Shown here piece by piece: positions 8,706-26,814 of a stretch of 64,000 bases of DNA. The stretch is taken from contig JBBITT010000001.1 of NCBI GenBank assembly GCA_037440625.1, positions 133,913 to 197,912 on the forward strand. The letters are read 5' to 3'. A model generated the notes under the pieces. That model saw only the letters and a list, made by a program, of their open reading frames with translations, had not been told where the DNA came from and searched no databases. Position 1 is the stretch's first letter; each line of letters begins with the position of its first letter. The DNA is from Chloroflexota bacterium. Its GTDB lineage: Bacteria; Chloroflexota; Anaerolineae; UBA4142. The translations under genes were made by a program, and so were the position numbers.

Positions 8706-10133
8706 TTACGCTAGATCGTGCAGCGCAAGACGCGCGGCGTGATAGCCGCACATGCCATGCACGCCGCCGCCCGGCGGCGTTGACGACGAGCAAAGATAAA
8801 TGCCTTTTGCCGGCGTACGATAGGGGTGCAAACTCCATGTGGGCCGTGTGTAGAGTTGCCGCAAGTCTGCCGCGCCGCCATTAATGTCGCCGCCGATGTA
8901 GTTGTTGTTGTGTGTTTCGAGCCACGCCGGCGTCATCGTATGTTGCGCCATAATGCGATCACGAAACCCCGGCGCAAATCGTTCGATTTGTGCGATCATT
9001 CGCTCGGTCATATCGAAGGTCGAACCGTTGGGCACGTGGCAGTATGCCCAAACGGTGTGCTTGCCAGCCGGCGCGCGCGTTTGATCGAACAGTGTTTGTT
9101 GCACGACGAGGATGTACGGTTTTTCCGGCGGCTTGCCCTCCGCCGTCTCGCGTTCTGATTGCGCAATCTCGGCGAGGGTGCCGCCCACATGCACAGTCCC
9201 CGCGCGTTTGCATGTCTCCGCTTTCCACGGGATCGGACCGTCCAACGCAAAATCGAGTTTGAACACCCCCGCGCCGTACCGGAATTTTTCAAGCGTGCGA
9301 CGATAACCATCGGGCAAGCGCTTGCCCGCAATCTTGAGCAACTGCTTGGGCGTTACGTCGAACAAGTATGCGCGCGCGTTGGGTAATTCATCAATGGATT
9401 CAACGCGATGATTCACCACGATTTCGCCGCCGAGCGATTGAAAATATTTGCCCAGCGCGTTCGCCAGATTTTGCGAACCGCCTTTGATGAGGGGCCAGCC
9501 GGAAACGTGGGCGGCAACGCCTAACGCCAAGCCATATGCGGCGGTCGTCAAATTTTCCAACGGCAACATGGTATGCGCGGCGATGCCGGCAAACAAACCG
9601 CGCGCGTGTTCATCGCTGAAAAGAAATTCCGCAAGCAGGCGCGCCGGCACGATAGCAGGGAGTGCAAAACGCGCAAATGTGAACGGATGACGCGGCGGAA
9701 GCGGCAAGGGTCCTAGCAAATCTTGATTCAACTTGTCGGACTCGCGGACGAGCGGCTCGATCAAGCGACGATAATTCGCTCCATCCTTACCGAGCGTGGC
9801 GCATGTTGCCTCAATCGAACGATAAAGTACCGCCGCCGTACCATCGTCGAGCGGGTGGGCGAGTGCGGCATCGGGATAGATCAACTCGACGCCCTGGTCG
9901 GCGAGCGGAATCGTTTTGAAAAATGGCGAGACAACGGTGAGCGCCTGCACGGTCGAACACATATCGTGAACGAAACCTGGGAGCGTCAACTCAGCGGAGC
10001 GAATGCCACCGCCAATTGTTTCGTTCGCTTCGTATACCACGACCGAATGTCCCGCGCGCGCGAGGGTAATCGCGGCGGCAAGCCCATTCGGTCCCGCGCC
10101 GATGATGATAGCGTCATATTTTTCGCGTGACAT
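8706..10133 (-). CDS. Phytoene-desaturase-family (CrtI-like, COG1233) NAD(P)/FAD oxidoreductase
   Basis: YDAIIIGAGPNGLAAAITLARAGHSVVVYEANETIGGG dinucleotide fold and C-terminal GGGVHGMCGY. ATG at 10133 is preferred over TTG at 10172. Confidence 0.75.
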   Translation of the reverse strand: MSREKYDAIIIGAGPNGLAAAITLARAGHSVVVYEANETIGGGIRSAELTLPGFVHDMCSTVQALTVVSPFFKTIPLADQGVELIYPDAALAHPLDDGTAAVLYRSIEATCATLGKDGANYRRLIEPLVRESDKLNQDLLGPLPLPPRHPFTFARFALPAIVPARLLAEFLFSDEHARGLFAGIAAHTMLPLENLTTAAYGLALGVAAHVSGWPLIKGGSQNLANALGKYFQSLGGEIVVNHRVESIDELPNARAYLFDVTPKQLLKIAGKRLPDGYRRTLEKFRYGAGVFKLDFALDGPIPWKAETCKRAGTVHVGGTLAEIAQSERETAEGKPPEKPYILVVQQTLFDQTRAPAGKHTVWAYCHVPNGSTFDMTERMIAQIERFAPGFRDRIMAQHTMTPAWLETHNNNYIGGDINGGAADLRQLYTRPTWSLHPYRTPAKGIYLCSSSTPPGGGVHGMCGYHAARLALHDLA

Positions 10134-10184
10134 TTTCAGATTGGATTTTATGCTGATTCTTTCTAACCGCAAATAAAGAGCAAA

Positions 10185-11384
10185 TTATTTTTTCTTCAAC
10201 CACAAACTCACACTTGCTGGTTGCATCGTTTCGTTCACCACGTTCAATAATTCCCCAGTCAACTTTTCCAACTCGACTTCATCGCGCACGGTCACCGCAA
10301 AACTTTCCAAGACTTTTTGTGCGTCGTACTTGCGGCGATAAAAGCGATGGTCAATGGTGTCTTGCACGCGGTTACGCAACGGGTTGAACAAGGCGGCAAT
10401 CACGAGTGTCGAGATGATAATCGCCAAATCGTCGCCAGCGCCCGTTATTGTGCGGAAAATTTGTTGCAGAACGACGACTGCGCCGAAATAAAATAACGCC
10501 AGTGTCGCGGTAATGATGGAGTAAATCAGGGTGCGGCGAATGAGGATGTCGATGTCAAAGAGTTGGTGGCGCACAATAGCGATGCCGATCGAGACCGGGA
10601 GAATGGAAAACGCAAGCGCCTCTTTGACACTCTCCCAGACACCGGGCAATTCATAGATGATGTCGCTAACTAGATACACGCCGAACAAGAGCGTTCCAAA
10701 GAAAAACCACTTGAGCTGTTTTCGTTCGACGCGGGTCGATTTGCGATAACGCACGATGATGGACAAAACTCCCACAAAGAGACTTGCAAAGAGCGTATAC
10801 ACGGCAACATTCGTCAACAGGGTGACAATCTCGCCGACCCACCCCTCAATGCCAAAGGGGTTTTCGATTGGAACCATCCCCGAAATCCCCGGCATCGCCC
10901 AACCGAGTCCAAGCGCGATGGCTAATGCCGCTAATGCAATCCAAGCGACCGGACGCCAGCGCCGCGAAGGAAGTTCTCCCGTCGGGAAAAGGTATAGCAC
11001 GAAAGAAAACATGGCAATCCCTAGAACCCATCCGATTCCCGCGAATGCCAATGCTTCTGCCGCCATCGGCAACGAACCCGGCTCAATCAGCATGCCATGC
11101 GTCACATAGGCAATCCCAAAGTTTTCCAAACAAAAACCTAATCCCAATGTGAGCCAAATCCAGCCATAAAGGTTGCGCGGCATCTTGAACGCAATCACCA
11201 TTCCAACGAGAACAGCTGGTAGTGCCGACAGTGCATAAACCAGGCGCGAATCGGTTTGATTGAATGCCTCAACCGTCAAAGTGGCTTCGCGCCCCATCCA
11301 GATCAAAACAATCGTTGCGCCGACCAGCAGAAAAGATACCGCTGTCAGCCCAACTACAAACGTGCGACGGTTTCGTTCCATCAT
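10185..11384 (-). CDS. Sensor-like polytopic membrane protein, paralog copy 1 (no kinase/output domain)
   Basis: Start moved to ATG 11384 (AGGAGAG 5 nt upstream). FPTGELPSRRWRP, ERKQLKW, DIDILIRRTLIYS, FNPLRNRVQDTIDHRFYRRKYDAQ and ETMQPASVSLWLKKK are shared with copies 2-4. Confidence 0.8.
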   Translation of the reverse strand: MMERNRRTFVVGLTAVSFLLVGATIVLIWMGREATLTVEAFNQTDSRLVYALSALPAVLVGMVIAFKMPRNLYGWIWLTLGLGFCLENFGIAYVTHGMLIEPGSLPMAAEALAFAGIGWVLGIAMFSFVLYLFPTGELPSRRWRPVAWIALAALAIALGLGWAMPGISGMVPIENPFGIEGWVGEIVTLLTNVAVYTLFASLFVGVLSIIVRYRKSTRVERKQLKWFFFGTLLFGVYLVSDIIYELPGVWESVKEALAFSILPVSIGIAIVRHQLFDIDILIRRTLIYSIITATLALFYFGAVVVLQQIFRTITGAGDDLAIIISTLVIAALFNPLRNRVQDTIDHRFYRRKYDAQKVLESFAVTVRDEVELEKLTGELLNVVNETMQPASVSLWLKKK

Positions 11385-11397
11385 TGTTTCTCTCCTG

Positions 11398-11452
11398 TCT
11401 TCTTGAGCCACAAACTCACACTTGCTGGTTGGGTGGTTTTGCACCAGTCAAC
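11398..11452 (-). pseudogene. Solo 3'-end remnant of a fifth paralog directly upstream of copy 1
   Basis: 11408-11431 is 24/24 identical to 10200-10223, the 3' coding end of copy 1. It reads QPASVSLWLKKT in another frame. CCAGTCAAC further upstream also matches, with an internal deletion between. Confidence 0.6.
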
Positions 11453-11525
11453 GGACAAGCGCGGCGAGGATGAGTGAAATCATCATCACCGCGCTGAATT
11501 GCAAACCCACTCAGTATCACACTTA

Positions 11526-12287
11526 TTACTTCTGCATCCCACGCTTGAACACATTGGCGAGCCACCGAAACGGCGTGAGCAACAAATAGACGACGGTCCA
11601 AAACGCGGCGTTCTTGAAAATGTTGGTCCACTTGCCCCACTGAACTTTGGGGTCGATGACATCTTTCTTCGCTTCGACGCGTGCTTCAACGCCAAGATGT
11701 TTCGCCAGCGCGGTCAACACGTGTGTCCACGTTTTGTCCTGCTGCTGCGATGAGCCAAAGAATCGATAAAAGAGTTCGTACAGCGGGTCGCTGGCGCGCA
11801 CCATTGGTTGGACTTGCGCGAACGCGACGCCGTCTTCCTCAAACGCGCTGAACGTGTTCCACCCGGCTTCGGGAAATCCTTCCGGCGTCATCACCGTGAA
11901 TGAGGTGTCGTCCGCGTAGAGAATCATCACGCCCGCGGCGACCGGCATTATCGCGGGCATTCCCGGAAACGGCGGAACCTTGCCGTCGATAAGAATGATG
12001 CTTCCCGGCTTGATGCCTTGCATCGATGGATAGAAATGATTTTCCGGCGGCTGGAACTTGGGAAAGTTTTCCTTCCACACTTGCATCACTTGCGCCGCCG
12101 ACATCTTGACACCATCGAGTCGGACGCGGTACGTTTTTTGCACGAGTTGTCCAAAGCCCTGAAGCGGACTCTGAACTTGGTGCCCATCGACGTTTATATT
12201 TGTCGCGCCCGCCGGCACGTCGGTCACTTTTAACTTATCGACCGGTTGCGCCCAGTTGCCGGCATCGCGCGGTTGATTTTGAGTCAT
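11526..12287 (-). CDS. Hypothetical protein with C-terminal TM helix (possibly DUF1990-like)
   Basis: 253-aa ORF on the operon strand, ATG at 12287. C-terminal hydrophobic helix AAFWTVVYLLLTPF. Family assignment is uncertain. Confidence 0.5.
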   Translation of the reverse strand: MTQNQPRDAGNWAQPVDKLKVTDVPAGATNINVDGHQVQSPLQGFGQLVQKTYRVRLDGVKMSAAQVMQVWKENFPKFQPPENHFYPSMQGIKPGSIILIDGKVPPFPGMPAIMPVAAGVMILYADDTSFTVMTPEGFPEAGWNTFSAFEEDGVAFAQVQPMVRASDPLYELFYRFFGSSQQQDKTWTHVLTALAKHLGVEARVEAKKDVIDPKVQWGKWTNIFKNAAFWTVVYLLLTPFRWLANVFKRGMQK

Positions 12288-12304
12288 TAGTTTTTCCTGT
12301 TTCT

Positions 12305-12350
12305 GCCACAGGCAGAGAGCGCAAAGTTTTTTCTTTGTGATCCCTGTGGC
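12305..12350. repeat. Degenerate copy of the CCACAGnGATCACA hairpin element
   Basis: 8-bp inverted termini GCCACAGG/CCTGTGGC. On the reverse strand CCACAGGGATCACAAAG resembles CCACAGAGATCACAGAA at 24583-24599. Confidence 0.4.
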
Positions 12351-12736
12351 TAATCTGCTTTGAGCCGTATCAACCCGCCGATGTAATGCGGATCGACCTT
12401 GAACGTAATTCCCGATCCCGCGATCTTGCTCATCTTTTCTAGCGTCGCGGGATTCGGCGTTCCAAAAATCTCGATACTGATTGGCTCGATAAACTCGTAC
12501 GTTTTCTTCGAACGTTTGTCCGCGCCTTGCAACTGCTGATCGAGCGCATCCGCGTTTGGAAAAACACGTACGATGGTTACTTCGGTCGCATCGGCGTTTT
12601 CGTAGGCGAGTTGCGCGAGCGTGTTGGATTTGTTCGCTTCGATAGTCGGCACGCTGTTGTGATAGTGCGTCCGAAACTCATCGGCCTTGTCTGGCTTGAT
12701 ACGATTGCGGCTGATGAACACGATTGGGGCAGTCAT
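12350..12736 (-). CDS. Hypothetical small protein (possible ABM / dimeric alpha-beta-barrel fold)
   Basis: 128 aa, starting 6 nt after the SRPBCC stop. The pattern resembles antibiotic-biosynthesis-monooxygenase-like domains. Weak call. Confidence 0.45.
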   Translation of the reverse strand: MTAPIVFISRNRIKPDKADEFRTHYHNSVPTIEANKSNTLAQLAYENADATEVTIVRVFPNADALDQQLQGADKRSKKTYEFIEPISIEIFGTPNPATLEKMSKIAGSGITFKVDPHYIGGLIRLKAD

Positions 12737-12742
12737 CTGTGC

Positions 12743-13183
12743 CTACATTTCGGATTCGATCAACTGCTTGATGTTACGCGCGCTCCGCTCCACCATACCT
12801 GTAATCCAACTCTTCATCGATTCATCCATATCGGGAAACTCTGCGTGGATCGTGAGCGTTGTTTGCTTTTCGTTTTCAACCTTAAAGGTCACCCACCCGC
12901 GCGTCACGCTCGGACCGTCGTGAATTTTCACTCCGATAATTTTGTTGCGTTCAAATTCCACGACCTCCATCGTGCCATCAACGGGCGTCCCGCTGTGAGT
13001 GTTGCGTCTACGAATGACCGTCCCGACGCCGATTGGTCCCTCAGATATTTGTTCGAGTTGCATGTCGGGATCCCAGCGCGGATGATTGCGGACATGCTCA
13101 TCGGCGTAGAAATGAAACACCTTGTCGATGGGGCGGTCGATCACTTGCGAAACTTGAAGTTGGACTGGCATATATTTCTCCAT
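12743..13183 (-). CDS. SRPBCC (polyketide cyclase/START-like) ligand-binding protein
   Basis: 146 aa. IDRPIDKVFHFYADEHVRNHPRWDP is the typical SRPBCC N-terminus. The start overlaps the STAS stop (TAATG). Confidence 0.7.
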   Translation of the reverse strand: MEKYMPVQLQVSQVIDRPIDKVFHFYADEHVRNHPRWDPDMQLEQISEGPIGVGTVIRRRNTHSGTPVDGTMEVVEFERNKIIGVKIHDGPSVTRGWVTFKVENEKQTTLTIHAEFPDMDESMKSWITGMVERSARNIKQLIESEM

Positions 13184-13527
13184 TACACATTTGCAACGGC
13201 TTGCGCTTCGGAATCGAAAATCTTGATCGCTTCGTTGAGCCGCGTCAGCGCAAAGATTTGCTTGTAATGATCGTTCAAGCCGTACGCCAGCAATTTTTGC
13301 TTCAGACGATTGGCGCGGATTAACATCGTTACCAGCAAGCCGATGCCGGAACTGTTCATATATTCCAGTCCACTAAAGTTCAAGACGACGCCGCGTGTGC
13401 CGTTACTCGCTTGAGTGTACGCATCGGTCAAGATGTTTTCGGCGGCGGCGGTTACCTCGCCTTGGATGTCAATGATGCCCACTGCGCCCACTTGCCGTAC
13501 GTTCATCAATACTTTGGCATTTGCCAT
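13183..13527 (-). CDS. STAS-domain anti-sigma-factor antagonist (SpoIIAA/RsbV-like), copy 1
   Basis: VLNFSGLEYMNSSGIGLLV contains the phosphorylatable Ser context. 114 aa. Confidence 0.8.
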   Translation of the reverse strand: MANAKVLMNVRQVGAVGIIDIQGEVTAAAENILTDAYTQASNGTRGVVLNFSGLEYMNSSGIGLLVTMLIRANRLKQKLLAYGLNDHYKQIFALTRLNEAIKIFDSEAQAVANV

Positions 13528-13602
13528 TTTGCTCCTCTCCCGGAATTGGAATTTGTTGTGCTCGAATTTTTTCTTGATCCATCAGAACGCAAGTCAAAGT
13601 AG

Positions 13603-13643
13603 GAAGGCGGAAGTATGAAAGATTTTTTCATACGTCATCCTTC
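13603..13643 (-). other. Composite hairpin in the 121-nt spacer between the two STAS genes
   Basis: GAAGG/CCTTC outer stem plus GTATGAAA/TTTCATAC inner stem with a 5x5 internal loop. Lies 5 nt after the STAS-2 stop. No clear U-tract. Confidence 0.3.
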
Positions 13644-13648
13644 TGAAT

Positions 13649-14002
13649 TCATTCTTTATTTCCCAGCGCCGACGCTTCATCGGGAAAGACGGTCATAAAA
13701 TCCGAAAGGCGCGTGATTCTGAAAATCTCTTGGTAATGCTCACTCAAGCCGTAAACTAACAAACGAATGCCAGCGCGCCGCGCATTCGCCAGGATGCCGA
13801 CGATGAGCGCGATCCCTTTACTGTTGATGTAATCCACGTCGGTAAAATTCAAGATGATGGTTTGGGGGTTTTCGCGGGTGGCTTGGGTGTACGCTTGATT
13901 CAGCAAGGGTTCTTCGGCAAAGGCATCAATTTCACCGTGCAAATCAATGATGGCGGTGTGATTGACATACCGCACCTGGGCGCGAAATTCTCTAGTTTGC
14001 AT
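13649..14002 (-). CDS. STAS-domain anti-sigma-factor antagonist, copy 2
   Basis: ILNFTDVDYINSKGIALIV retains the Ser. The start overlaps the PP2C-kinase stop by 11 nt. Confidence 0.8.
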   Translation of the reverse strand: MQTREFRAQVRYVNHTAIIDLHGEIDAFAEEPLLNQAYTQATRENPQTIILNFTDVDYINSKGIALIVGILANARRAGIRLLVYGLSEHYQEIFRITRLSDFMTVFPDEASALGNKE

Positions 14003-15602
14003 ATTTACCTTCTTTCAAATTTAGCACGAGTTCAAAGGTGTTGCTATCGTCGCTAGGAATGATATTCATTTCGTCTACCAGATTCTTGATGAGGAACAAA
14101 CCCCAGCCACGCGGCGATTGCAAGCCGGCAAGTTTCGCTTCCAAATCTGGGGTGGGGGTGTTGGGGATTTCTTGCCGCCCGCCTTGATCGGTGATGCGAA
14201 CTGCCAATTGCCCGGCTGATTTCATCACGCGAATCGTCACCACCAAGTCGCCCCGATTTTGGTTGCCATATTCGATGGCGTTCATGGTAGCTTCGGCGAC
14301 GGCCGTCTTGAGTCGTTCGAGGCGCTCGGTGGATAGACCCAGGGGGCTCACCGCTTCTTCGACGCCCCGCATCGCGATGCGTTCATTGCCCGGCTCGCTG
14401 GGAATTGTAAAATCGGCGATGGTGATCCAATCGCGCGCCGCTTGCGCGCGCTGGCTTGGCGCACGATGATCGTGTCGCACGGCGACGAGTGTCACATCGT
14501 CTTCCTGTTCCCAGCCGGGTTCGGTGAAACTTGCCAGATCGTCCAACAACGAACGAATCAACGCCGTGCCCTCGTGATCGCGAATCGTGACCAATAATTT
14601 TTGCAATCGCGGAAAACCGTACATTTCGCGTTGGGGGTTGTGCGCTTCAACCAAGCCGTCGGTGTACATCAACAAACTATCGCCCGGTTCTAGCACCGTT
14701 TCTTTTTCTTCGTACTTCATTCCCGGCATCAAACCGAGCGGCATGCCGGTCGCGCGCAACTCTTCGACCTGCTCACGGCAGCGACGGTACGGCAGATCGT
14801 GTCCCGCGTTGGCGTATTGCAATTTGCCGGTGGACGGATCGAGAATGGCGTAGAGGCAAGTGATGAACATCGACGGCGGAATTTCCGGGCAAATCAAATC
14901 GTTTGAGCGTTCGAGCGCCGCACCGGGCGATAACATCCGGCGCGATGCGCCGCGCAAAATTGCGCGCGTCGTCGCCATCACGAGCGCGGCGGGCACGCCT
15001 TTGTCCGTCACATCGCCGATGACGATGACGAGCCGTCCGTCCGGGCGTTCGTAGCAATCGTAGAAATCGCCGCCGACCGCGCGCGCGGGTTGATAATGCG
15101 TGGCGATTTGCCAGCCGTCGATCTTCGGCAATTCTTTCGGCAAAAGTGTTTGCTGAATCAAACGCGCGACTTGAAGTTCTTGCGCCAAGCGCTCCATCTC
15201 GCGTGCTTCGATTTGTTGTTGCCGCACGAGTTGCGCCACGCGCACGGCGGGCCCGGCTTGACTGGCGAGGTTGTTGAGCAACCCGCGATCATCGCTGGAG
15301 TAATCTTGCTCGCTGAGACGCGGACCCAGATTCAACAACCCGACGAGTTCGCCTTGACTGACAAGTGGCACTGCCAAACGAACGCCGGCAGTCTTGAGCG
15401 CACGCAACATCGGCGAATCAAAGTTGAGACCCGCCGCATCGAACACGCCGGGATGACCTTGTAAAAAAATCGTGAGCGGATCGTTCGGCGTAATGTCGAA
15501 CGCGCGGATAGCGTCCGGTGGTAATGGACGCGGCGGCGGCGTGGGTGACGATACCATTTCTTGGGAATTGGTTTTGGAAAATCGAGTAATGTTTTTTATC
15601 AT
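13992..15602 (-). CDS. GAF-like / PP2C (SpoIIE) phosphatase / RsbW-type HATPase fusion protein
   Basis: VPLVSQGELVGLLNLG (GAF-like), AVGGDFYD...VIGDVTDKGVPAAL...TDGLVEA (PP2C) and C-terminal EATMNAIEYGN...VRITDQG (anti-sigma kinase fold). Confidence 0.8.
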   Translation of the reverse strand: MIKNITRFSKTNSQEMVSSPTPPPRPLPPDAIRAFDITPNDPLTIFLQGHPGVFDAAGLNFDSPMLRALKTAGVRLAVPLVSQGELVGLLNLGPRLSEQDYSSDDRGLLNNLASQAGPAVRVAQLVRQQQIEAREMERLAQELQVARLIQQTLLPKELPKIDGWQIATHYQPARAVGGDFYDCYERPDGRLVIVIGDVTDKGVPAALVMATTRAILRGASRRMLSPGAALERSNDLICPEIPPSMFITCLYAILDPSTGKLQYANAGHDLPYRRCREQVEELRATGMPLGLMPGMKYEEKETVLEPGDSLLMYTDGLVEAHNPQREMYGFPRLQKLLVTIRDHEGTALIRSLLDDLASFTEPGWEQEDDVTLVAVRHDHRAPSQRAQAARDWITIADFTIPSEPGNERIAMRGVEEAVSPLGLSTERLERLKTAVAEATMNAIEYGNQNRGDLVVTIRVMKSAGQLAVRITDQGGRQEIPNTPTPDLEAKLAGLQSPRGWGLFLIKNLVDEMNIIPSDDSNTFELVLNLKEGKYAN

Positions 15603-15611
15603 CTTGCCTCT

Positions 15612-15656
15612 CTTGTACCAAACTATCGTTCAGAAAACGTTACGGAAAGCGTTACG
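15612..15656 (-). promoter_or_regulatory. Triple-heptamer direct repeat plus TA-hexamer in front of the PP2C operon (candidate SARP operator/promoter), site A
   Basis: Plus strand: CGTTCAG 15627-33, CGTTACG 15638-44, CGTTACG 15650-56 (spacing 11 and 12 nt). TACAAG on the minus strand (15612-17) lies 9 nt beyond the last heptamer. 28/36 identical to site B. Confidence 0.55.
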
Positions 15657-15683
15657 GGAATTTAGTTCAATAGTTGAAAAGTT

Positions 15684-15756
15684 CGATAGTGCGATAGTTG
15701 CTTGGTCGTATCCTTAACCATCAAACGATTGCACTAACGCACTATTGCACTATTTT
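15684..15756 (-). repeat. ATAGT/ACTAT octamer palindromic element straddling the stop codon of paralog 2
   Basis: Tandem octamers TCGATAGT-GCGATAGT pair (8+4 bp) with ACTAACGC-ACTATTGC-ACTATTTT. Same architecture as 21554-21630. On the minus strand CTTTTC follows. Confidence 0.55.
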
Positions 15757-17006
15757 TTAAGCCACAAACTGACATGCGTCGGTTGCATCGTTTCATCAAC
15801 GACGCGCAGTAACTCGCCCGCCAATTTTTCCAATTCGACTTCGTCGCGTACCGTCGCCGCAAATTGGGCGAGGATTTTCTGTGCATCGTACTTGTGGCGA
15901 TAGAATCGCTGGTCAATCCAATTTTGCACCCGCTCACGGAGTGGGTTGAACAACGCGGCGATAACGAGCGTTGAAATGATGATTGCCAAATCGGATGATT
16001 GTCCAGTGAGGATACGGAACACTTGCTGTAGCAAAATGATGATTGCCATGTAGACAATGACCAAGTTCGCGGTCAGCACACCATAGATCAAGGTGCGGCG
16101 GATAATAATGTCAATGTCCCACAGCCGATAGCGCAGAATGGAAAATCCAAGCGCGATAGGAATTAGCAGAATAGACCAAGCAAATAACGGTACGCCGATG
16201 AGGTGGTACAAAATATGCGCGCTGCCCGGCGTTTGTAAAGCCGGGATGACCAACGCGGAACCGATGTACATTGAAATACCGGTGGCAGATCCGGCAAACG
16301 CAAACACTACCCACTTGGTCTGCTGGCGTTCGGTGGGGGTTGCCATATACCGATAACGATACAATTGCACGATCACGCCACTGATAAACATGAGGGCAAA
16401 AGCCGAAACGGAAAAACGGACATCCAGATCGAACAAGTTGATGCGGCGGTCGAACAGCGAGAGAAACGAATAGGTGAGGAGGATTGGCGCGGCAAAGCGG
16501 GTAATGCGCGGGACAAACTGACCATCGGGAAAAAGATAGAAACAGATAAAGAACGCACTCCATCCGAACGCTTGGAGCGCGTGCACCGGTGTCTCCAAAA
16601 TCGAACCGGGGACATCGAGGGCGCGGATCGTGCTGGGAATGATTGCGCCAAAGACGATGAGTGTCAGCGAGGCAAAGAGTGCAAGGGGTTCATCGGTCTT
16701 GCGCCAAAAGATCATCAAGCCGATGCTGCTAAAGGCAAGCAGAAACAGACATTCCAGCACTATAAAGTACCACGCGTACGCTTCGAGGGGGATGCTCAAG
16801 CGGGCTAACAATACCGCTTCGTACGCCGCGAGTTGGGCATTCCAATCATTGCCCACGGGCGTTGTCGTCAAGAGTTGTTTCCAACGGGCGGGAAGCGCGA
16901 GGATGAACAAACTATACGTCGTGACGACAAGGGTGGCCCAAACGCCGCGGGCTAGGATGAGACGCCAACCACGCAAATGAATTGTTACCCCATCACGAAA
17001 AAACAT
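15750..17006 (-). CDS. Sensor-like polytopic membrane protein, paralog copy 2
   Basis: ATG at 17006 with GAGGGGGAG RBS. IFWRKTDE, FPDGQFVPRITRF, ERQQTKW, RYRLWDIDIIIRRTLIYG, FNPLRERVQNWIDQRFYRHKYDAQ, ETMQPTHVSLWLKK. Confidence 0.85.
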   Translation of the reverse strand: MFFRDGVTIHLRGWRLILARGVWATLVVTTYSLFILALPARWKQLLTTTPVGNDWNAQLAAYEAVLLARLSIPLEAYAWYFIVLECLFLLAFSSIGLMIFWRKTDEPLALFASLTLIVFGAIIPSTIRALDVPGSILETPVHALQAFGWSAFFICFYLFPDGQFVPRITRFAAPILLTYSFLSLFDRRINLFDLDVRFSVSAFALMFISGVIVQLYRYRYMATPTERQQTKWVVFAFAGSATGISMYIGSALVIPALQTPGSAHILYHLIGVPLFAWSILLIPIALGFSILRYRLWDIDIIIRRTLIYGVLTANLVIVYMAIIILLQQVFRILTGQSSDLAIIISTLVIAALFNPLRERVQNWIDQRFYRHKYDAQKILAQFAATVRDEVELEKLAGELLRVVDETMQPTHVSLWLKK

Positions 17007-17019
17007 TGCTCCCCCTCGC

Positions 17020-18462
17020 TTATTCGGTGCGCGCTTCCCATTCAGCGCGAGGTATCTCTCCCAGCATACGCCATGGCGGAGCGAGCGGCAGCACGCCTAA
17101 TTCTTTGACGATGCGCCGTGCGGCAATCCCGACGATTGCCGCGTACGTGGGATACGCGATTTCCAATTCGGCCAATTGCTCCACCCAAATATCCGCCGCC
17201 ATTCCCGCCGCAATCAATTGCACAATTTCAACGGCTTGTTCACCGACGACGTGAGCACCTAGAATGCGATGCGTTTCGGTTGAGACGATGAGTTTGCAAA
17301 ACCCTTCGATGTGATCGTCAATCACCGCCCGATCCACATCGGCATAGGGCACCTCCGTGATGATACAGTCCGTTTGCGCACGGGCGCGTGCTTCAGTCAA
17401 GCCAACGCCGGCATATTCCGGATCCGTGAATCCGCCGTGGGGTACGAGCAAATGTTGGTACGGCAAACCCAGACCCAGCACCGCGTTCTCCGCCGCGATG
17501 CGTCCTTCGTAACTTGCGCTTTGGACTAGCATCATTCGTCCGGTGATGTCGCCCGCCGCAAAAATATTTTCCGCCGATGTTTGTTGATAATCGTTCACGG
17601 CGATGTAGCCGCGTTCGGTGGTTTGCACGTTCGCCGCGGCGAGATTCAAGTTTTCGATATTCCCCACCCAGCCGATGGCTTGGAGGACGCCTTCTGTTTT
17701 GAGCGTCGTGGTTTCGCCGTTATGTGCATACTCGACGTGAAATTCATTCCCGATTTTGTTGATGCGTTGCACGGTGACATTGGTCGTGATGGCGATTCCC
17801 CGCCGGTGAAACGCTTGCGTGATCGAGCGCGGAATCATTTCATCTTCTGTCCCAAGAATTTGCGGGTGTGCTTCGAGAATATGCACGGGCGCGCCGAATG
17901 CGGCGACGATAGAGGCAAGTTGACACCCCGTGGCTGCCCCACCAATGACGACAACCGAGCGCGGCAAATTTTTCATCGCCCAGACCTGGCTGTGGGTGAG
18001 CGCGTGTTCGCCGCCGGAAATTTTTAACTGGCGGGCATGCCCACCCGCGCAGATGATAAAGCGGTCCGCGTGGAAACGCGCGCCATCATCCAATTGAATC
18101 GTTTGCGTGTTGATGAATTGAACATTGCCGACACTTTCCAAGACACGAATCCCGGTGCGTTGAAAATGGCTGAGCAATTGTTTCTTTTCGTGTAAACGAT
18201 ACACCTTTTGTTGCGCGTTCGATAACGCGCGTGCGAAATCAATGGTCGGCGCGTCGGCATACAGACCATATTCGGCAAAATGATTCGCTTCGCGCGCTAG
18301 CCGTGCGGCTTTTGCCAGCACGCGCGTTGGCGCACAACCATCGTTCGTACAAGTCCCGCCCAACCGGCCGCGTTCGATGAGTGTGACATTCGCGCCGAGT
18401 TCACGCGCGCGCAATGCGGCAGTTACACCACCGGGTCCACCACCGATAACGATAACATCCAT
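17020..18462 (-). CDS. Pyridine nucleotide-disulfide oxidoreductase (class I, dihydrolipoyl-dehydrogenase-like, atypical)
   Basis: ATG at 18462 (GAGGA RBS). VIVIGGGPGG; redox-active GGTCTNDGC (CxxxxC). The C-terminal dimerisation region reads AYPTYAA where lipoamide dehydrogenases have HPTLSE. Confidence 0.8.
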   Translation of the reverse strand: MDVIVIGGGPGGVTAALRARELGANVTLIERGRLGGTCTNDGCAPTRVLAKAARLAREANHFAEYGLYADAPTIDFARALSNAQQKVYRLHEKKQLLSHFQRTGIRVLESVGNVQFINTQTIQLDDGARFHADRFIICAGGHARQLKISGGEHALTHSQVWAMKNLPRSVVVIGGAATGCQLASIVAAFGAPVHILEAHPQILGTEDEMIPRSITQAFHRRGIAITTNVTVQRINKIGNEFHVEYAHNGETTTLKTEGVLQAIGWVGNIENLNLAAANVQTTERGYIAVNDYQQTSAENIFAAGDITGRMMLVQSASYEGRIAAENAVLGLGLPYQHLLVPHGGFTDPEYAGVGLTEARARAQTDCIITEVPYADVDRAVIDDHIEGFCKLIVSTETHRILGAHVVGEQAVEIVQLIAAGMAADIWVEQLAELEIAYPTYAAIVGIAARRIVKELGVLPLAPPWRMLGEIPRAEWEARTE

Positions 18463-18519
18463 ACTCTTATCCTCGAATAAACCGGGAATCAAGGGAAATG
18501 AAGGAAGCGGCGGGTTCCC

Positions 18520-19707
18520 CTAGTTCCCTTGTTTCTTCAACCACAAACTCACCGTGGTCGGTTGCATCGTCTCGGTCACGACGCGCAACAATTCGCCCAC
18601 CAACTTTTCCAGTTCGACTTCATCGCGCGCGGTTGCCGCAAATCGTTCGAGGACTTGTTGCGCATCGTACTTGCGGCGATAGAAACGGTGGTCAATCGTA
18701 TCTTGCACGCGATGGCGCAGCGGATTGAACAATGCAGCAATCGCCCAAGTCGAAACGATGATTGCTAGATCATCGCCGGCGCCGGTGAGCGAACGGAAAA
18801 GTTGTTGCAGGACAATAACACTGCCGAAATAAAACAGCGCGAGCAAGGCGGTAATGATCGAATAGATCAGCGTGCGACGAATGAGAATATCAATCTCGAA
18901 CAGACGATAGCGTAGGATCGCGAGCGTGAACGCGAGTGGCTGGATGCTCAACGCAACCCACCAACCCACGCCGTTCAACACCGCCCACCACGGGATTTCA
19001 CTTGGCGGCAAGTTTTGCACGTAATAGTACGGGATGCTTACGAGCGTCAGCAAACCATATGATAGCGCAAAACCGTACACGACCCATTTGGTCTGTTGAC
19101 GTTCGAGCAAATCGTACACCCGGCGATAGCGGTAGAATTGAATGCCGAGCGCAAGGATCAACATGGCGGCGATAATGGCATACATGATTTGTGCCGCAAG
19201 CGAATTCACGCGAATGATTTCATCGGCATCGGGAATGACGACGAACGCCGACAACGCGACTAGTACGGTGAGCGGAACGAGCCAGCGGGTCCAACGCGGC
19301 GCAAATCGTCCGTTGGGAAAAACGAGAATCAGAATTAACGTGGGCAGTGGGAAGCTTGCCGCTTGGATGACCAGCGCGAGATTTTCTGCGGAAGCAAACC
19401 AGAACGGCAGGAACATTTCAAGGGGACCCGCCAGAAATACCCCATACATCAATAAATACCAGGCGAGGAACAATGCCATCGCATCATTCGGTTTTCTGAC
19501 AAACAACAGCCCTGCCAGCGCAAGGCACAGCACCGCGCAACCAACCGACACGGACACACCCAGCCACGTCGCAAATAGTTGAATGGCAGAGAATTCAGCG
19601 GTCAAGTTAATCTCATTCACATGCTTCCAATACCCAGGAAGCGAACCGAACAAGATCGCCAACGATGCGATGAAGGTCGTACGCCACAACCAACGCGCAA
19701 TCTTCAC
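18520..19707 (-). CDS. Sensor-like polytopic membrane protein, paralog copy 3
   Basis: GTG start abuts the cNMP-protein stop (TAAGTG), with AAGGTGG RBS. FPNGRFAPRWTRW, ERQQTKW, RYRLFEIDILIRRTLIYS, ETMQPTTVSLWLKK. Confidence 0.85.
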   Translation of the reverse strand: MKIARWLWRTTFIASLAILFGSLPGYWKHVNEINLTAEFSAIQLFATWLGVSVSVGCAVLCLALAGLLFVRKPNDAMALFLAWYLLMYGVFLAGPLEMFLPFWFASAENLALVIQAASFPLPTLILILVFPNGRFAPRWTRWLVPLTVLVALSAFVVIPDADEIIRVNSLAAQIMYAIIAAMLILALGIQFYRYRRVYDLLERQQTKWVVYGFALSYGLLTLVSIPYYYVQNLPPSEIPWWAVLNGVGWWVALSIQPLAFTLAILRYRLFEIDILIRRTLIYSIITALLALFYFGSVIVLQQLFRSLTGAGDDLAIIVSTWAIAALFNPLRHRVQDTIDHRFYRRKYDAQQVLERFAATARDEVELEKLVGELLRVVTETMQPTTVSLWLKKQGN

Positions 19708-20121
19708 TTATCCACCTTCGGCATTCGTCTCGCCTTTTTCCGTCAAGTGATCTAATTCTTGTTTGAGTAATGTCATCTCCTGACTCAGCTCGCGGATGCG
19801 GCGCGACATCAATTGAAACAAGCGATACGCGAGCGACGGGTCTTCGTGGATGCGGCGCATGAAATTTTTCTTGTCGATGGTTAAGGCGCGCACTTGGCTC
19901 AACGCGCGCGCCGTCGCGTGTTGCACTTCTTTCTCAAAGATCGCCATTTCGCCCAGAAACTCGCCCGCGCTCCGCACGCCGAGAAACGTCTCTTGTCCAT
20001 TTTGCTCGCGCACGAGCGCAATCTGTCCTTCTTGAATGACGAACATACACTCGCCCACCTCGCCTTGACGAATCAAGATGTCACCCGGCTGGTACAATTT
20101 GCCCAACGTGTTTTGTTCCAT
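19708..20121 (-). CDS. Stand-alone cyclic-nucleotide-binding domain protein (no HTH)
   Basis: ATG at 20121 with GGAGGAG RBS. GDILIRQGEVGECMFVIQEG...GEFLGEMAIF...ATARA is the CNB beta-barrel. Only a ~35-aa helix follows it. Confidence 0.8.
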   Translation of the reverse strand: MEQNTLGKLYQPGDILIRQGEVGECMFVIQEGQIALVREQNGQETFLGVRSAGEFLGEMAIFEKEVQHATARALSQVRALTIDKKNFMRRIHEDPSLAYRLFQLMSRRIRELSQEMTLLKQELDHLTEKGETNAEGG

Positions 20122-20175
20122 CGACTCCTCCACTGCGTAACGGTAGCCTGCGATGGGCAATCACACTGGATTGCC

Positions 20176-21543
20176 CTACACGTTCTCATGCTTGCTGGTC
20201 CACGTGCCGACCTGTTCGCGCGGATGGATGAGCGCGACAAATAAATCCCAGATCAGACGCACGATGAACAAGGGATGCAACATCCGCACAAAAATTTCCT
20301 TGTACGGTGCGCTCCCTGTGAACATATCCCACATCACCATACTCATTCGCTTGGGGCGCTCGGTTTTCTTTTGCTCGTACGCGGTCATTCGCACCAGCGC
20401 GCGGCGCGCAAATGCCCATTGCTGAAGAATGCTCGTCACGAAGAAAATAAATTTGCCGATCAAGTTATCGTTTTCGATCCGCCGACACGCGGGCGCATAG
20501 TAACGCTGAAAATCTTCTTTGGCAATGCCCTCGAAAATTGCGGTGGTCGCGGCGGCTTTGGCGGCGCGATACGCCGCGCCGATGCCGTCTTTGTACAAGC
20601 GGGTCACGCCGCAATCGCCGATGAACACGATGCGGTCGCCGAACGGTTGCGTCGCGCCATCGACGGTCATCCGCGGCTGGCACTGGCACGGCGGTGAATC
20701 GAGTGCGACGCCCGGCGGCATCAAGTTGGCGAACGTTGGGCTGTGCACAAATGCTTTGACGAGATCGTTATCAATTTCGTGACCCAGCATCGCGAGCGTC
20801 ACATAATCGCCTTTCGGGACAAGCATCGCAAATTCCAGACGCGGCAAGTTGAGTAGAAAGACGTGCATCGAACTGCCGAGATATTTCGCGATCGTTTCCT
20901 CGCCGAGTTTATATTCGCGGATGAACGTTTTAGTCGTGCGCGGCGGTTTGTATTCGATGCCTAGTTTCTCGATCAATTTGAGTGCGGCGGTGTTCACGCC
21001 GGTCGTCACCGCAATCAAATCGTACATTTGCGTGTTGCCTTTTGCTGTGACAGCGAGCCGGTCTTCTTGCCGTTCGATGTTTTCGACGCGCGCGCGAATC
21101 ATCTGCGCGCCTTTGTCCATCGCCAGTTTCTGCAAATGCCCGTCGAAACTTTCCCAGCGAAATTCTTTGAGATCGCGCGGACCCGGACCGCGAAAGACCG
21201 ACGCGATTCTTTTTTCGCGCAACGGCGTGTCAATGCGAACCGAGCCGGTGTCGGTGTGAAGCACGTACGAATCAACGCCGCGCTGAACGACGTTCGTCGG
21301 CAGGATGATGCCCTCGGTCGAAAGATTTTGCACGAGCGATTCGGAAATCACGCCGCCGCACATATTGCAACCGGGCGGACCGGGAATTGTGAAATCGCGC
21401 GGCTCGTAAACATTGACGTGAAGGTCCAAGCCAACGCGCTCCGCCATATCGAGCAAAAAGTAGGTGAAGAAGGAACCGGCAGGACCGCACCCCATCACCG
21501 CCACGTGCGAGCCGTCGGTTAGTTTGAAATTTTCGTTGGTCAT
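20176..21543 (-). CDS. FAD-dependent oxidoreductase (geranylgeranyl-reductase-like fold) with hydrophobic C-terminal extension
   Basis: VAVMGCGPAGS dinucleotide motif, CNMCGGVIS and FIGDCGVTRLYKDGIG. GGAGG RBS at 21548-21552. Confidence 0.7.
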   Translation of the reverse strand: MTNENFKLTDGSHVAVMGCGPAGSFFTYFLLDMAERVGLDLHVNVYEPRDFTIPGPPGCNMCGGVISESLVQNLSTEGIILPTNVVQRGVDSYVLHTDTGSVRIDTPLREKRIASVFRGPGPRDLKEFRWESFDGHLQKLAMDKGAQMIRARVENIERQEDRLAVTAKGNTQMYDLIAVTTGVNTAALKLIEKLGIEYKPPRTTKTFIREYKLGEETIAKYLGSSMHVFLLNLPRLEFAMLVPKGDYVTLAMLGHEIDNDLVKAFVHSPTFANLMPPGVALDSPPCQCQPRMTVDGATQPFGDRIVFIGDCGVTRLYKDGIGAAYRAAKAAATTAIFEGIAKEDFQRYYAPACRRIENDNLIGKFIFFVTSILQQWAFARRALVRMTAYEQKKTERPKRMSMVMWDMFTGSAPYKEIFVRMLHPLFIVRLIWDLFVALIHPREQVGTWTSKHENV

Positions 21544-21553
21544 TGTTCCTCCG

Positions 21554-21630
21554 AGTGCAATAGTTCGATAGTGTGTTAGTGCGATAATTGAAAACTCGCA
21601 CGTCTAACTATCGAACTATTGCACTATTTA
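21554..21630 (-). repeat. ATAGT/ACTAT octamer palindromic element straddling the stop codon of paralog 4
   Basis: Perfect 19-bp inverted repeat 21554-21572 / 21607-21625 with an inner 6-bp stem GTGCGA/TCGCAC. The downstream arm ends 2 nt from the RBS of the next gene. Confidence 0.65.
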
Positions 21631-22886
21631 ACTTTCTTGAGCCACAAATTCACGCTCGTCGGTTGCATCGTCTCGCTCACCACGTTCAGTAACTCGCCGG
21701 TCAACTTTTCCAACTCGACTTCATCGCGCGCAGTGATCGCAAATCGTTCCAACACTTTTTGCGCGTCGTACTTGCGGCGATAAAAGCGATGGTCAATGGC
21801 ATCTTGCACGCGATGGCGCAGCGGATTGAACAACGCGGCAATCGCCAAAGTCGAAACAATGATTGCTAGATCATCGCCTGCCCCCGTAAGCGCGCGCAAG
21901 AATTGTTGCAAGATGACGACTGCGCCAATGTAAAACAGCGCAAGCAACGCCGTCAGAATCGAATAGATCAACGTGCGGCGAATGAGGATGTCGATATCCC
22001 AGAGGCGATAGCGCAAAATCGCTATAGCGATTCCGAGCGCAAGCGCGAGATAACTTGCCAAGCCAGTCGGAAAAACCACTAGAAGCATGAACGCGAGTCG
22101 CTCGGGGGACGGTTGTGACGGAGCGTAGATCGTAGAGGTGAAGGTGAACGGTACGAGTCCAAGAATTGGCGCCAAGAGACTTCCCATCAGCCATTTGGTT
22201 TGCTGTCGCTCGATCGCATTCGAAATCCGCGCATACCGATAGATGATGGAGTAAATCGCCGCGCAAAACCAAACCGCGCCCCCCACCAAAATTCCGAACG
22301 AAGCCATCGGATTCTCTTTCTCACCCAAAGTGGTGATAATCATTTGCGGGACAAGCGAAATGACAAGGATCGGAACAAATATCCACCGCGTCCAGCGCGG
22401 CTCAAAGCGGCCGGTCGGAAAAACAAACGGCAAAAGATAGTAACCGATTGCGGCAATGGGATACAGTGCATACACAATAATTTGAAATACGCCGAGATTT
22501 TGCACCCCTTCTACCGCAAACGAAACCAGTGTCAGGGACAAGAGCCACGCGAGCCAATCATCGGAACGGCGCCAGAAAATAATCAAACCGATAACGATAA
22601 ACGCTCCATACGTTAGGATACTTCTCCCAAAGTACATCATCCGAATCAGCGCTTCTGACATCCCCATTTTTTGCGCGATCCCCACGTCTTCTTGACTGAG
22701 ACTCCAGGGTCCGCAAGCGGCTTCAAGAGTCGTACAGTGTGGCAAGGGCTCGCCCAACGCGATGCCCATACTCGCGATGAACGCCGTGATCGCCACGCCG
22801 GCGCACACAAACCACGCCGCGCGTGCGATACTAAGCCAGGGCTGATGCAAAGTTGTGTTGGATTGACTCACCTTACATCGCTCCAT
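21624..22886 (-). CDS. Sensor-like polytopic membrane protein, paralog copy 4
   Basis: ATG at 22886 overlaps the methyltransferase 3' end by 14 nt (alternative GTG at 22871). IFWRRSDD, FPTGRFEPRWTRW, ERQQTKW, RYRLWDIDILIRRTLIYS, ETMQPTSVNLWLKK. Confidence 0.85.
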   Translation of the reverse strand: MERCKVSQSNTTLHQPWLSIARAAWFVCAGVAITAFIASMGIALGEPLPHCTTLEAACGPWSLSQEDVGIAQKMGMSEALIRMMYFGRSILTYGAFIVIGLIIFWRRSDDWLAWLLSLTLVSFAVEGVQNLGVFQIIVYALYPIAAIGYYLLPFVFPTGRFEPRWTRWIFVPILVISLVPQMIITTLGEKENPMASFGILVGGAVWFCAAIYSIIYRYARISNAIERQQTKWLMGSLLAPILGLVPFTFTSTIYAPSQPSPERLAFMLLVVFPTGLASYLALALGIAIAILRYRLWDIDILIRRTLIYSILTALLALFYIGAVVILQQFLRALTGAGDDLAIIVSTLAIAALFNPLRHRVQDAIDHRFYRRKYDAQKVLERFAITARDEVELEKLTGELLNVVSETMQPTSVNLWLKKVK

Positions 22887-23478
22887 TTTCGCGCGTCATC
22901 AAATACGCCGCTTCGCCGCGGAGCCAGCCACTCGCGTTCTGCCGCGCCATCACTTGCTCAATCGAAAAGAAATCGCCGAACCGGCGTTGCGCTTCACCCG
23001 GCTCTAGTGCCATTCGTTCGTGAATGCCGAACGCGCGCTCCCACCAACGCGGCGTCCACTCGAAACAATAGAGTAAGAACTGACTGCCCGGGTGCGTCAG
23101 TGGCAAAATATTTTTCACGTACAGATCGCGGTCTCGGTTCGGCAAATCGTCCAGCACGCCGTAATCAATGAGCAGATCGAACGTGCCGCTAACGTAGCGC
23201 AAATTCGTGAGATCGTCTACAACAAAAGTCGCGTTGACACCGGCGTCGTGCGCGCGTTTACGTCCCAAGGCGATTGCCGCTTGCGCGAAATCAACGCCGG
23301 TCACATCGAACCCACGTTGCGCGAGAAAGAGGGCGTTGCTTGCCGTGCCGCTTCCCAAGTCAATCGCGCGGCACGGTTTCAGGCGTCCGCTTTCGACGAG
23401 TTGCACAAGTTCCGCGCGCGGTCCAATATCCCACGGCGCGCGGAATCGGCTGTACAAAATTTCGTAGAACCATTTCAT
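22873..23478 (-). CDS. Class I SAM-dependent methyltransferase
   Basis: ATG at 23478 with GGAGG RBS. Motif I AIDLGSGTASNA, then DVTGVDF. Confidence 0.75.
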   Translation of the reverse strand: MKWFYEILYSRFRAPWDIGPRAELVQLVESGRLKPCRAIDLGSGTASNALFLAQRGFDVTGVDFAQAAIALGRKRAHDAGVNATFVVDDLTNLRYVSGTFDLLIDYGVLDDLPNRDRDLYVKNILPLTHPGSQFLLYCFEWTPRWWERAFGIHERMALEPGEAQRRFGDFFSIEQVMARQNASGWLRGEAAYLMTRENGAM

Positions 23479-23527
23479 CACGCACCTCCCAGAGACCAGG
23501 TTTCTTGAGGACACCCCGTCTTGAGAC

Positions 23528-23965
23528 TTACTGGTCGGCTTCCAATAACTCTTTGAGTTTCTGGTAATCAGACTCGAATTGTTTCTTGGATTGGCTGACC
23601 ACCATTCCTTCTGCCAATTTGAAAAACCCGCCCAATTCGGCGATCGTGGTTACTTTGACGGTCGTCGAACCACCGATGGATTCAAGTGTGGTGGTTTCTT
23701 CCATTGGGAAGGGACCCTTGAGCGACTTCCAGGCGTACCGCTTGGGTGGATCGTACTCGGTCACCTCGCCTTCGCTTTCGATCTTTTGTCCCAGAAACGT
23801 CGAAACAAACCGGTACTGACTGCCGACGCCCATCGGCGCGGGGGTGAGGATTTTGGATTCGATGACGCCGGTCATCCAACTCTTGTACGAATCGAAATTC
23901 GTCAGCGCCTTGAAGACATCGGCAGCAGGACGATGGATGGTAATACTAAATTCGAACGTTGCCAT
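23528..23965 (-). CDS. SRPBCC family ligand-binding protein
   Basis: 145 aa. FEFSITIHRPAADVFKALTNFDSYKSWM is the typical SRPBCC N-terminus. Confidence 0.7.
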   Translation of the reverse strand: MATFEFSITIHRPAADVFKALTNFDSYKSWMTGVIESKILTPAPMGVGSQYRFVSTFLGQKIESEGEVTEYDPPKRYAWKSLKGPFPMEETTTLESIGGSTTVKVTTIAELGGFFKLAEGMVVSQSKKQFESDYQKLKELLEADQ

Positions 23966-26617: not shown

Positions 26618-26646
26618 CGCTCCTCGCTATCCCGATCTTCAATGCC

Positions 26647-26807: not shown

Positions 26808-26814
26808 TCCGGCA

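Follow-up and report, generated by a model that had tools for sequence, protein, structure and literature searches.

The DNA analysed here is a stretch of 64,000 nucleotides (nt) from a Chloroflexota bacterium of the class Anaerolineae (assembly GCA_037440625.1, contig JBBITT010000001.1, positions 133,913 to 197,912 of the forward strand), hereafter the window. Its minus strand encodes four paralogous membrane proteins, which, together with their homologues, we call F proteins (copies c1 to c4). These proteins most likely switch on a neighbouring PP2C-type phosphatase by providing the missing first piece of its GAF domain. A functional link between F and the phosphatase is strongly supported, and we consider it rather probable that the F proteins serve a partner-switching phosphatase as interchangeable membrane inputs, with a split GAF domain as the coupling.

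The genes concerned are listed below, with lengths in amino acids (aa). Recurrence was counted by BLAST of the window neighbours against all open reading frames (ORFs) of 76 F-side loci from species-representative genomes of Anaerolineae, Caldilineae, Ardenticatenia, Ktedonobacteria, Chloroflexia and Rubrobacteria; recurring genes always lie on the F strand.

10185-11384, minus strand: F copy 1 (c1), 399 aa, ORF extendable to a GTG at 11444; between the U253 and CrtI-like genes (listed further below)
15750-17006, minus strand: F copy 2 (c2), 418 aa; 148 nt upstream of the headless-GAF phosphatase gene
18520-19707, minus strand: F copy 3 (c3), 395 aa; the copy modelled with AlphaFold2 (AF2)
21624-22886, minus strand: F copy 4 (c4), 420 aa; membrane module plus GAF alpha1-beta1 tail, C-terminus ...ETMQPTSVNLWLKKVK; 399 bits with the family hidden Markov model (HMM)
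13992-15602, minus strand: PP2C phosphatase with headless GAF, coiled-coil linker, SpoIIE/PP2C domain and HATPase_c_2 (RsbW-like) domain; proposed output partner of F
13649-14002, minus strand: STAS protein a (anti-sigma-antagonist type), STAS match at 4e-16, start overlapping the PP2C stop; homologues in 22 loci
13183-13527, minus strand: STAS protein b, STAS match at 9e-14; homologues in 22 loci

An earlier note on this DNA, made from the letters alone, had described the four F genes as full-length paralogs, and they are: c2 to c4 share 44-46% identity with c1 across the full length. The shared motifs that it listed are present in the copies, except that c1 lacks FWRK and c3 has FVRK. The N-terminal parts are polytopic and diverged, and the C-terminal ~125 aa are strongly conserved; over the last 129 codons, protein identity is 71-85% and DNA identity 68-81%, so that calling this tail nearly invariant was somewhat overstated for c2 (71-72%). 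The synonymous divergence (dS) of the tail is 0.84-2.39 and the ratio of nonsynonymous to synonymous divergence (dN/dS) is 0.08-0.14. The low dN/dS and high dS indicate that the tail is conserved by purifying selection on old paralogs, and these dS values rule out recent gene conversion as its source, and chance does not account for it either; old partial gene conversion may have occurred.

No kinase, cyclase, transporter or enzyme domain was found in the four copies with Pfam and NCBIfam, as the note had stated. There were zero Pfam matches to HisKA_3 (E <= 1) or to HATPase_c, the proteins stopping 0-3 residues past ...LWLKK, and F is therefore not a histidine kinase. Neither the Pfam GAF profiles (PF01590, PF13185, PF13492) on F alone nor, at E <= 1, 7TMR-DISM (PF07695) and HisKA_7TM (PF16927) produced a match in the window copies; one F homologue (P0096) has a precomputed PF07695 match, and one gene of the P0340 locus matches PF16927 weakly. 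In NCBIfam, c2 to c4 weakly match the membrane part of the PrsK histidine kinase model (TIGR02916), at positions ~100-347 of 679. The AF2 model of c3 (pLDDT 84) is an all-helical polytopic bundle of about 10 helices with long C-terminal ones, in which the last 14 residues (QPTTVSLWLKKQGN) are unstructured. Foldseek of this model against the PDB returned nothing significant, just generic resemblance to 7-transmembrane (7TM) bundles, and a transporter or enzyme identity is unsupported by sequence or fold comparison. A simple hydropathy predictor was inconsistent on F (8-11 segments), and topology was taken from the AF2 helices and the positive-inside rule, which point to an N-in/C-in protein with, probably, 10 transmembrane (TM) segments. 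With the helices read in this way, the basic motifs found family-wide and the K/R-rich tail would all be cytoplasmic.

The N-terminus of the window phosphatase matches only positions 77-133 of the Pfam GAF profile. This headless form is widespread, and, among 120 homologues, 1-52 low-complexity residues (median 34) stand ahead of the GAF remainder, which rules out a mis-called start concealing alpha1-beta1. Read-through of c2 into the phosphatase gene was also rejected: the two ORFs share a frame, but further in-frame stops follow that of c2. On the PrsK model, the phosphatase N-terminus aligns at positions 409-475, beside the F match and without overlap with it. The catalytic domain matches SpoIIE over the full Pfam profile (4e-54), with the metal-binding motifs GGDFYD, DVTDKG and QEDDVT visible, and weakly matches the SiaA model (3.5e-16). 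Residues 400-525 match HATPase_c_2 (7e-20), with weak matches to the SpoIIAB and RsbW models. Both STAS proteins have a serine in an N-S-x-G motif (INSKG, MNSSG), which, placed by eye, we take to be at the position of SpoIIAA Ser58. As a separate observation, many headless orthologues (P0121, P0125, P0189; L003, L010, L015 and others) carry a short aromatic motif at the extreme N-terminus, for example TFWQNLL, SFWQRIFGG or GFWRNFRG, followed by a Pro/Ala/Glu-rich disordered stretch; the window phosphatase begins MIKNITRFSK in its place. The motif could bind the membrane, bind F or serve as a cis strand replacing beta1.

The two halves of the GAF domain are united in natural fusions. When the phosphatase N-terminus was searched by itself, the matches were mostly short fragments that revealed no fusions. 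A chimeric query, which did reveal them, consisted of the c2 C-terminal block and the N-terminal half of the phosphatase. Natural proteins span 99-100% of this query in a single alignment at 45-59% identity (P0244, P0247, P0258, P0262, P0259, P0261, P0263, P0265, P0271 and P0274); in these, the F stalk and tail continue straight into the GAF remainder and PP2C. The Pfam GAF profile aligns over positions 1-132 with residues 103-232 of P0244 and 223-355 of P0258, beginning at the tail helix and finishing at ...AAPAVRVAQL. Because the profile spans both parts in the fusions, one GAF domain is divided between the F tail and the phosphatase N-terminus. The fusion P0247, complete at 637 aa, is encoded directly after a homologue of PNDR, the pyridine-nucleotide disulfide oxidoreductase listed below, which is the slot of the split F-PP2C pairs.

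A structure model predicts that the combined halves give a complete GAF fold. The AF2 chimera joined c2 residues 280-418 to phosphatase residues 1-164, with the disordered phosphatase N-terminus as the linker, and its alignment contained F proteins, headless phosphatases and natural fusions. Mean pLDDT was 86. The tail helix (residues 102-117) and the VSLWL beta-strand (122-126) reached pLDDT ~90-94, compared to ~50 and no structure for the same segment in F modelled alone, and the GAF remainder and long linker helix reached ~95; the linker fell below 50, with the first ~18 phosphatase residues disordered. Foldseek of the model found 42 PDB matches at E <= 1e-3, all GAF domains. These alignments cover 184-196 columns against single-domain targets of 161-173 aa (target-normalised TM-score 0.63-0.69) and would be too long unless they took in the F tail.

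Gene order connects the same two partners. Of the 76 loci, 25 have a headless-GAF PP2C gene (133-162 bits) on the F strand, as the window does, and BLAST with the window phosphatase likewise gave homologues in 25 loci. An F gene is found upstream of 25 of 26 PP2C genes. The PP2C gene is directly downstream of an F gene in 15 cases, including the c2-PP2C pair of the window, with gaps of -76 to 224 nt. Sampling from the PP2C side gave the same cluster with F genes in 5 of 5 loci, confirmed by the HMM in the four having DNA; in the fifth (P0340, no DNA), two genes of ~417-439 aa directly upstream of PP2C were taken as F. F is immediately upstream of PP2C in three of these five (L078, L079 and, by inference, the P0340 locus).

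The stand-alone form of F is the norm. A word-indexed search returned 6,517 F homologues, the best 120 of which are nearly all 395-450 aa, Pfam-less, from Chloroflexota and annotated as hypothetical; a profile search of 1.84 billion cluster representatives gave 34,049 matches at E <= 1e-3 and 9,159 at E <= 1e-30. The family resides mainly in Chloroflexota and Rubrobacteria. A purpose-built family HMM identified 257 F ORFs in the 76 loci, typically arranged in tandem (L004 has 12 copies, L013 about 13 and L038 9), and nearly all stop just past LWL(K/R) and a short charged tail. These searches indicate that an F protein of ~400 aa without an output domain is the usual architecture and not a local truncation; truncated genes or pseudogenes are ruled out, the ~400-aa form ending in LWL(K/R) being the norm among thousands of homologues.

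Relatives with an output domain explain what the tail is. The note had described the module as the N-terminus of HisKA_3 kinases, and such proteins are present in Chloroflexota: relatives of ~710 aa (L031, L055, L064) have an F-type membrane module followed by GAF, HisKA_3 and HATPase_c, and residues ~25-412 of these kinases align to the family HMM at 335-360 bits. HisKA_3 was found in the fused relatives L031 and P0360/P0364. Alignment to the kinase-fused relatives identifies the F tail as GAF helix alpha1 and strand beta1. Some metagenome-assembled genomes contain both kinase-fused and stand-alone F (L031 with L063, L055 with L030). Concatenated F modules in one chain were also observed (P0360, P0364, P0365, P0361, P0362), as F-F-HisKA_3-HATPase_c of ~1,080 aa (the F-F-kinases P0360 and P0364), F-F-F-kinase of 1,457 aa and F-F of 917-929 aa; such multi-module polypeptides suggest that F modules may also hetero-oligomerise.

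Across 186 F proteins, column conservation is 0.56-0.77 from the RYRLWDIDI motif to the end and 0.2-0.4 in the N-terminal module. At equal N-terminal identity (15-35%), tails from one locus share 72-73% identity and those from different loci 57-58% (p < 1e-26), a similarity that fits tails tuned to one partner in the same genome. In a mirror-tree analysis of 27 F/PP2C pairs, the F C-terminus tracks the phosphatase (r 0.3-0.5), and the N-terminal module gives r 0.1-0.2.

With F a sensor-like protein that has no output domain, signalling via a neighbouring protein is the best reading, as the earlier note had proposed; the soluble partners it named left out the PP2C-HATPase_c_2 protein and the two STAS proteins, which are the ones backed by adjacency, fusions and domain complementarity. 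We infer a physical complementation and an activation step, under the control of sensed signals and directed at a downstream target, that would proceed as follows. Each F would end, on the cytoplasmic side, in the first helix and strand of a GAF domain (...EVELEKLxGELLxVVxETMQPxxVSLWLKK), and the phosphatase would present about 30 disordered residues, then the GAF remainder, the coiled-coil linker and the catalytic domain. The F tail would dock on the headless GAF and complete its fold, and docking would tether the phosphatase to the membrane and order or dimerise the linker. The state of the membrane module would then set phosphatase versus kinase activity on the two STAS proteins, and a single phosphatase would have several F paralogs competing for it or sharing it. 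In RsbU-type PPM phosphatases, the N-terminal regulatory domain orders a coiled-coil linker and thereby dimerises the catalytic domains, and GAF, PAS and receiver domains are interchangeable in that regulatory position (PMC12143880); signalling helices commonly stand between sensor domains and PP2C outputs (PMC1592074). It is on this published mechanism of linker dimerisation that the proposed control of the linker by the F tail is modelled. Since the paralogs of a genome keep nearly the same tail and their membrane parts diverge, many different sensors could feed one phosphatase.

Several observations weigh against this proposal. Only 15 of 100 F arrays with downstream room are directly followed by PP2C, and the tail is kept in F-F and F-F-kinase chains that have no adjacent headless GAF, so it may have another or an additional role, such as helix-bundle dimerisation. 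Once the mirror-tree was controlled for the catalytic domain, the tail-GAF partial r was -0.10, no signal beyond phylogeny, and the same pattern of tail identity could arise if the N-terminal parts diverge fast after duplication, or from old partial gene conversion. The complete GAF of the AF2 chimera is partly predicted by homology because the alignment held natural fusions. No sigma factor or other target of the switch is found among the conserved cluster genes (a sigma-70 gene lies near the cluster in one locus). The redox enzymes, the cytochrome c and U253 find no place in the proposal.

These latter genes belong to a conserved cluster, with the consensus order (TM146-Cyt)-F×n-(PNDR)-F-PP2C-STAS-STAS-U253-(CrtI-like)-F×n, which the minus strand of the window matches. 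Its remaining members in the window, and the divergent gene at its edge, are:

11526-12287, minus strand: U253, 253 aa with a hydrophobic C-terminal segment; 24 loci, directly after the two STAS genes, often tandem-duplicated
8706-10172, minus strand: CrtI/amine-oxidase-like FAD enzyme, a conserved cluster member; 14 loci
17020-18492, minus strand: PNDR, class-I pyridine-nucleotide disulfide oxidoreductase; 14 loci, usually closing an F array or immediately ahead of PP2C
19708-20160, minus strand: cyclic nucleotide monophosphate (cNMP)-binding protein; 4 loci, in the trio FAD455-cNMP-F
20176-21543, minus strand: FAD455, geranylgeranyl-reductase-like flavoprotein; the same 4 loci and trio
24646-25605, minus strand: membrane-anchored dihaem cytochrome c, at the upstream cluster edge; 12 loci
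26177-26617, minus strand: TM146, small membrane protein, at the upstream cluster edge; 11 loci
26521-29688, plus strand: BTAD + AAA_16 + TPR regulator (SARP/STAND-like, 1,055 aa), divergent from the cluster edge

U253 has no match in Pfam, NCBIfam or a PDB sequence search, and is linked to the PP2C module as tightly as the STAS proteins are. Among the 76 loci, 11 have a homologue of the BTAD-AAA_16-TPR protein beside the cluster (on the opposite strand in 10), and so do L078 and L079; this protein could regulate the system or be its target. In L079, a gene for a protoglobin-Rieske fusion (12058-13368), located between U253 and the CrtI-like gene, is a further redox or gas-sensing component associated with the cluster. 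PIN-domain toxin-antitoxin pairs lie inside the cluster in L080 (4379-5022) and L081 (4736-5526 and 17110-17695), and L080 also carries an inserted NB-ARC/TPR gene. A defence system was considered and rejected, given that PADLOC models match none of F, U253, PP2C, STAS and FAD455; the cNMP-binding protein matches them in generic cNMP-binding regions only.

Other genes within or beside the cluster in the window are:

12350-13183, minus strand: ABM protein and SRPBCC1, between STAS b and U253
22873-23965, minus strand: methyltransferase and SRPBCC2, upstream of c4
7650-8687, minus strand: MVD, a mevalonate-pathway decarboxylase, downstream of the CrtI-like gene
5322-7529, plus strand: conventional sensor histidine kinase ORF just past the cluster, with motifs read by eye from the translation

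The methyltransferase and MVD have no homologue in any of the loci. ABM and SRPBCC1 were found in none of the 76, and only L078, the closest relative, has them too (67% and 81% identity); SRPBCC2 has one homologue, in L064. Judged from this distribution, these five look like lineage-specific insertions, not components of the system. None of the related loci has a homologue of the histidine kinase at 5322-7529, which seems to be no part of the system.

The earlier note had a different partner in mind for each F copy: every F would be an orphan sensor signalling via its own adjacent redox or ligand-binding protein, in repeated cassettes of sensor plus flavoenzyme. The local arrangement that it described was borne out, including the tight intergenic spacing: the methyltransferase gene overlaps the c4 start by 14 nt, the stop of the cNMP-protein gene abuts the c3 start, 13 nt separate the stop of the disulfide reductase (PNDR) gene from the c2 start, and the CrtI-like gene and then MVD come after c1. 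A neighbourhood survey also found adjacency to soluble partners conserved in related genomes, so that the lack of such conservation, which the note had named as a refutation, was not observed; there, the CrtI-like enzyme, PNDR and the FAD455-cNMP pair are cluster members always on the F strand, the last as a trio with F in 4 loci besides the window. The methyltransferase and MVD never recur, however, and the F genes of relatives mostly adjoin other F genes, forming tandem arrays that reach 9-13 copies and have a single PNDR or CrtI-like gene in all; one sensor per partner is thus not the rule. The fusions examined join F to HisKA_3, PP2C or other F modules, and none to a flavoenzyme or cNMP protein (the long F+386 ORF of L066 aside), and near-identical tails speak for one shared partner, not four. 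We regard such cassettes as quite improbable. Highly improbable, in our judgement, is a non-signalling role, with F a transporter, membrane enzyme or structural protein of a redox or lipid pathway, its tail a remnant and PP2C merely co-regulated. The cluster does hold several redox enzymes and a cytochrome c, the ligand or signal of F is not known, and tandem amplification is unusual for sensors; but no transporter or enzyme family matches F by sequence or fold, the tail is the most conserved part (dN/dS ~0.1), unlike a remnant, and the same module heads histidine kinases and PP2C phosphatases.

It is also rather unlikely, though less so, that F proteins act as hetero-oligomeric co-receptors, with each other and with output-bearing homologues (F-GAF-HisKA_3 and F-GAF-PP2C), the tail being a helical dimerisation element and not part of a completed GAF. 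GAF alpha1 helices commonly sit in GAF dimer interfaces. The chains with two or three F modules, with or without a kinase, are as expected of co-receptors, as is the presence of kinase-fused and stand-alone F in the same metagenome-assembled genomes (L031/L063, L055/L030); moreover, the two TM segments plus stalk are conserved within a genome as much as the tail, and are the only part to show a partial correlation, a weak one, with the phosphatase GAF (r 0.20). This explanation leaves two things unaccounted for: the alpha1-beta1 of F is precisely what the adjacent phosphatase is missing, and the VSLWL strand is conserved together with the helix. The window also contains no kinase-fused or PP2C-fused F homologue. 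Oligomerisation of this kind is compatible with GAF completion by the F tail, and both may hold.

Palindromes mark two of the gene junctions involving F:

21548-21630, minus strand: palindrome/hairpin at the c4-FAD455 junction, with a perfect 19-bp inverted repeat (AGTGCAATAGTTCGATAGT ... ACTATCGAACTATTGCACT), free energy (dG) -37.5 kcal/mol, z -10.6, and no U-tract
15660-15755, minus strand: related weaker palindrome at the c2-PP2C junction, z -2.7

The 10-mer GTGCAATAGT (allowing <= 1 mismatch) occurs 12 times in the window compared to 2.7 expected, with 6 of the 12 in these two junctions. The palindromes may be an element of RNA processing, stability or attenuation, or a repeat resembling repetitive extragenic palindromic (REP) sequences.

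In its most general form, which we advance tentatively, the proposal is of a plug-and-socket split sensor domain, in which dozens of receptors per genome would compete for the headless GAF of one PP2C/RsbW-type phosphatase-kinase, a many-to-one integration at the membrane. If true, this coupling differs from covalent domain fusion, phosphotransfer and stressosome-type sequestration; it would be a new mode of receptor-output coupling, via a domain split between two genes, and would explain the many sensors per phosphatase. In the literature searched, no paper was found that describes the F family, the cluster or a natural split GAF, nor any natural split sensor domain that couples receptors to a signalling enzyme. 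The system is of a known kind, partner switching with membrane-receptor input, and its coupling principle is possibly new. Many Chloroflexota and Rubrobacteria have F genes among their most amplified ones, and the proposal, if true, gives a role to an unannotated membrane family of ~34,000 clusters at 50% identity and defines a conserved signalling and redox cluster of ~15-20 genes in phyla whose signal transduction is almost unstudied. A natural split-GAF pair could, in that case, also serve protein engineers.

Among known systems, F is close to the HisKA_3 sensor kinases (NarL/LiaS-type) that have a polytopic N-terminal module and a GAF domain, including the distant PrsK type (TIGR02916), with which F shares the membrane module, the cytoplasmic motifs, the stalk and the first GAF helix and strand. 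Unlike these kinases, F stops after GAF beta1, without the GAF remainder, HisKA_3 and HATPase_c, and represents a separate, far more numerous stand-alone form. On the output side, the system resembles RsbU/RsbV/RsbW and the stressosome RsbR paralogs of Bacillus subtilis: it comprises a PP2C phosphatase, STAS substrates and an RsbW-like kinase domain, and several sensor paralogs that, like RsbR, vary at the N-terminus and are conserved at the C-terminus would feed one phosphatase, which, like RsbU, would be activated via an N-terminal domain and coiled-coil linker (PMC12143880). It differs in that the F sensors are polytopic membrane proteins and not cytosolic globin-STAS proteins, RsbS and RsbT are missing, the cluster has no conserved sigma factor, phosphatase and kinase domain form one chain, and the predicted coupling is the completion of a split GAF.

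Control of a PPM phosphatase that acts on a STAS-type partner by a polytopic membrane domain is also the principle of SpoIIE, SiaA (SiaABCD) and 7TMR-DISM-PP2C proteins, whose one-polypeptide layout is shared by the natural F-GAF-PP2C fusions (P0247, P0258). In the F system, by contrast, the receptor and the phosphatase are encoded separately, with the break lying within a domain, and each phosphatase gene has several to many receptor genes. Rv1364c of Mycobacterium tuberculosis is a PAS-PPM protein fused C-terminally to anti-sigma and anti-anti-sigma domains (PMC12143880). Like the window phosphatase, it combines a PPM phosphatase and an RsbW-like kinase domain in one chain, but it differs in having a complete PAS sensor and a fused STAS domain and in lacking a membrane partner. 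Completion of the fold of one protein by the beta-strand of another is familiar from donor-strand complementation in chaperone-usher pili and from engineered split proteins. Those cases are structural assembly or artificial, whereas the split GAF predicted for F and the phosphatase would serve signalling.

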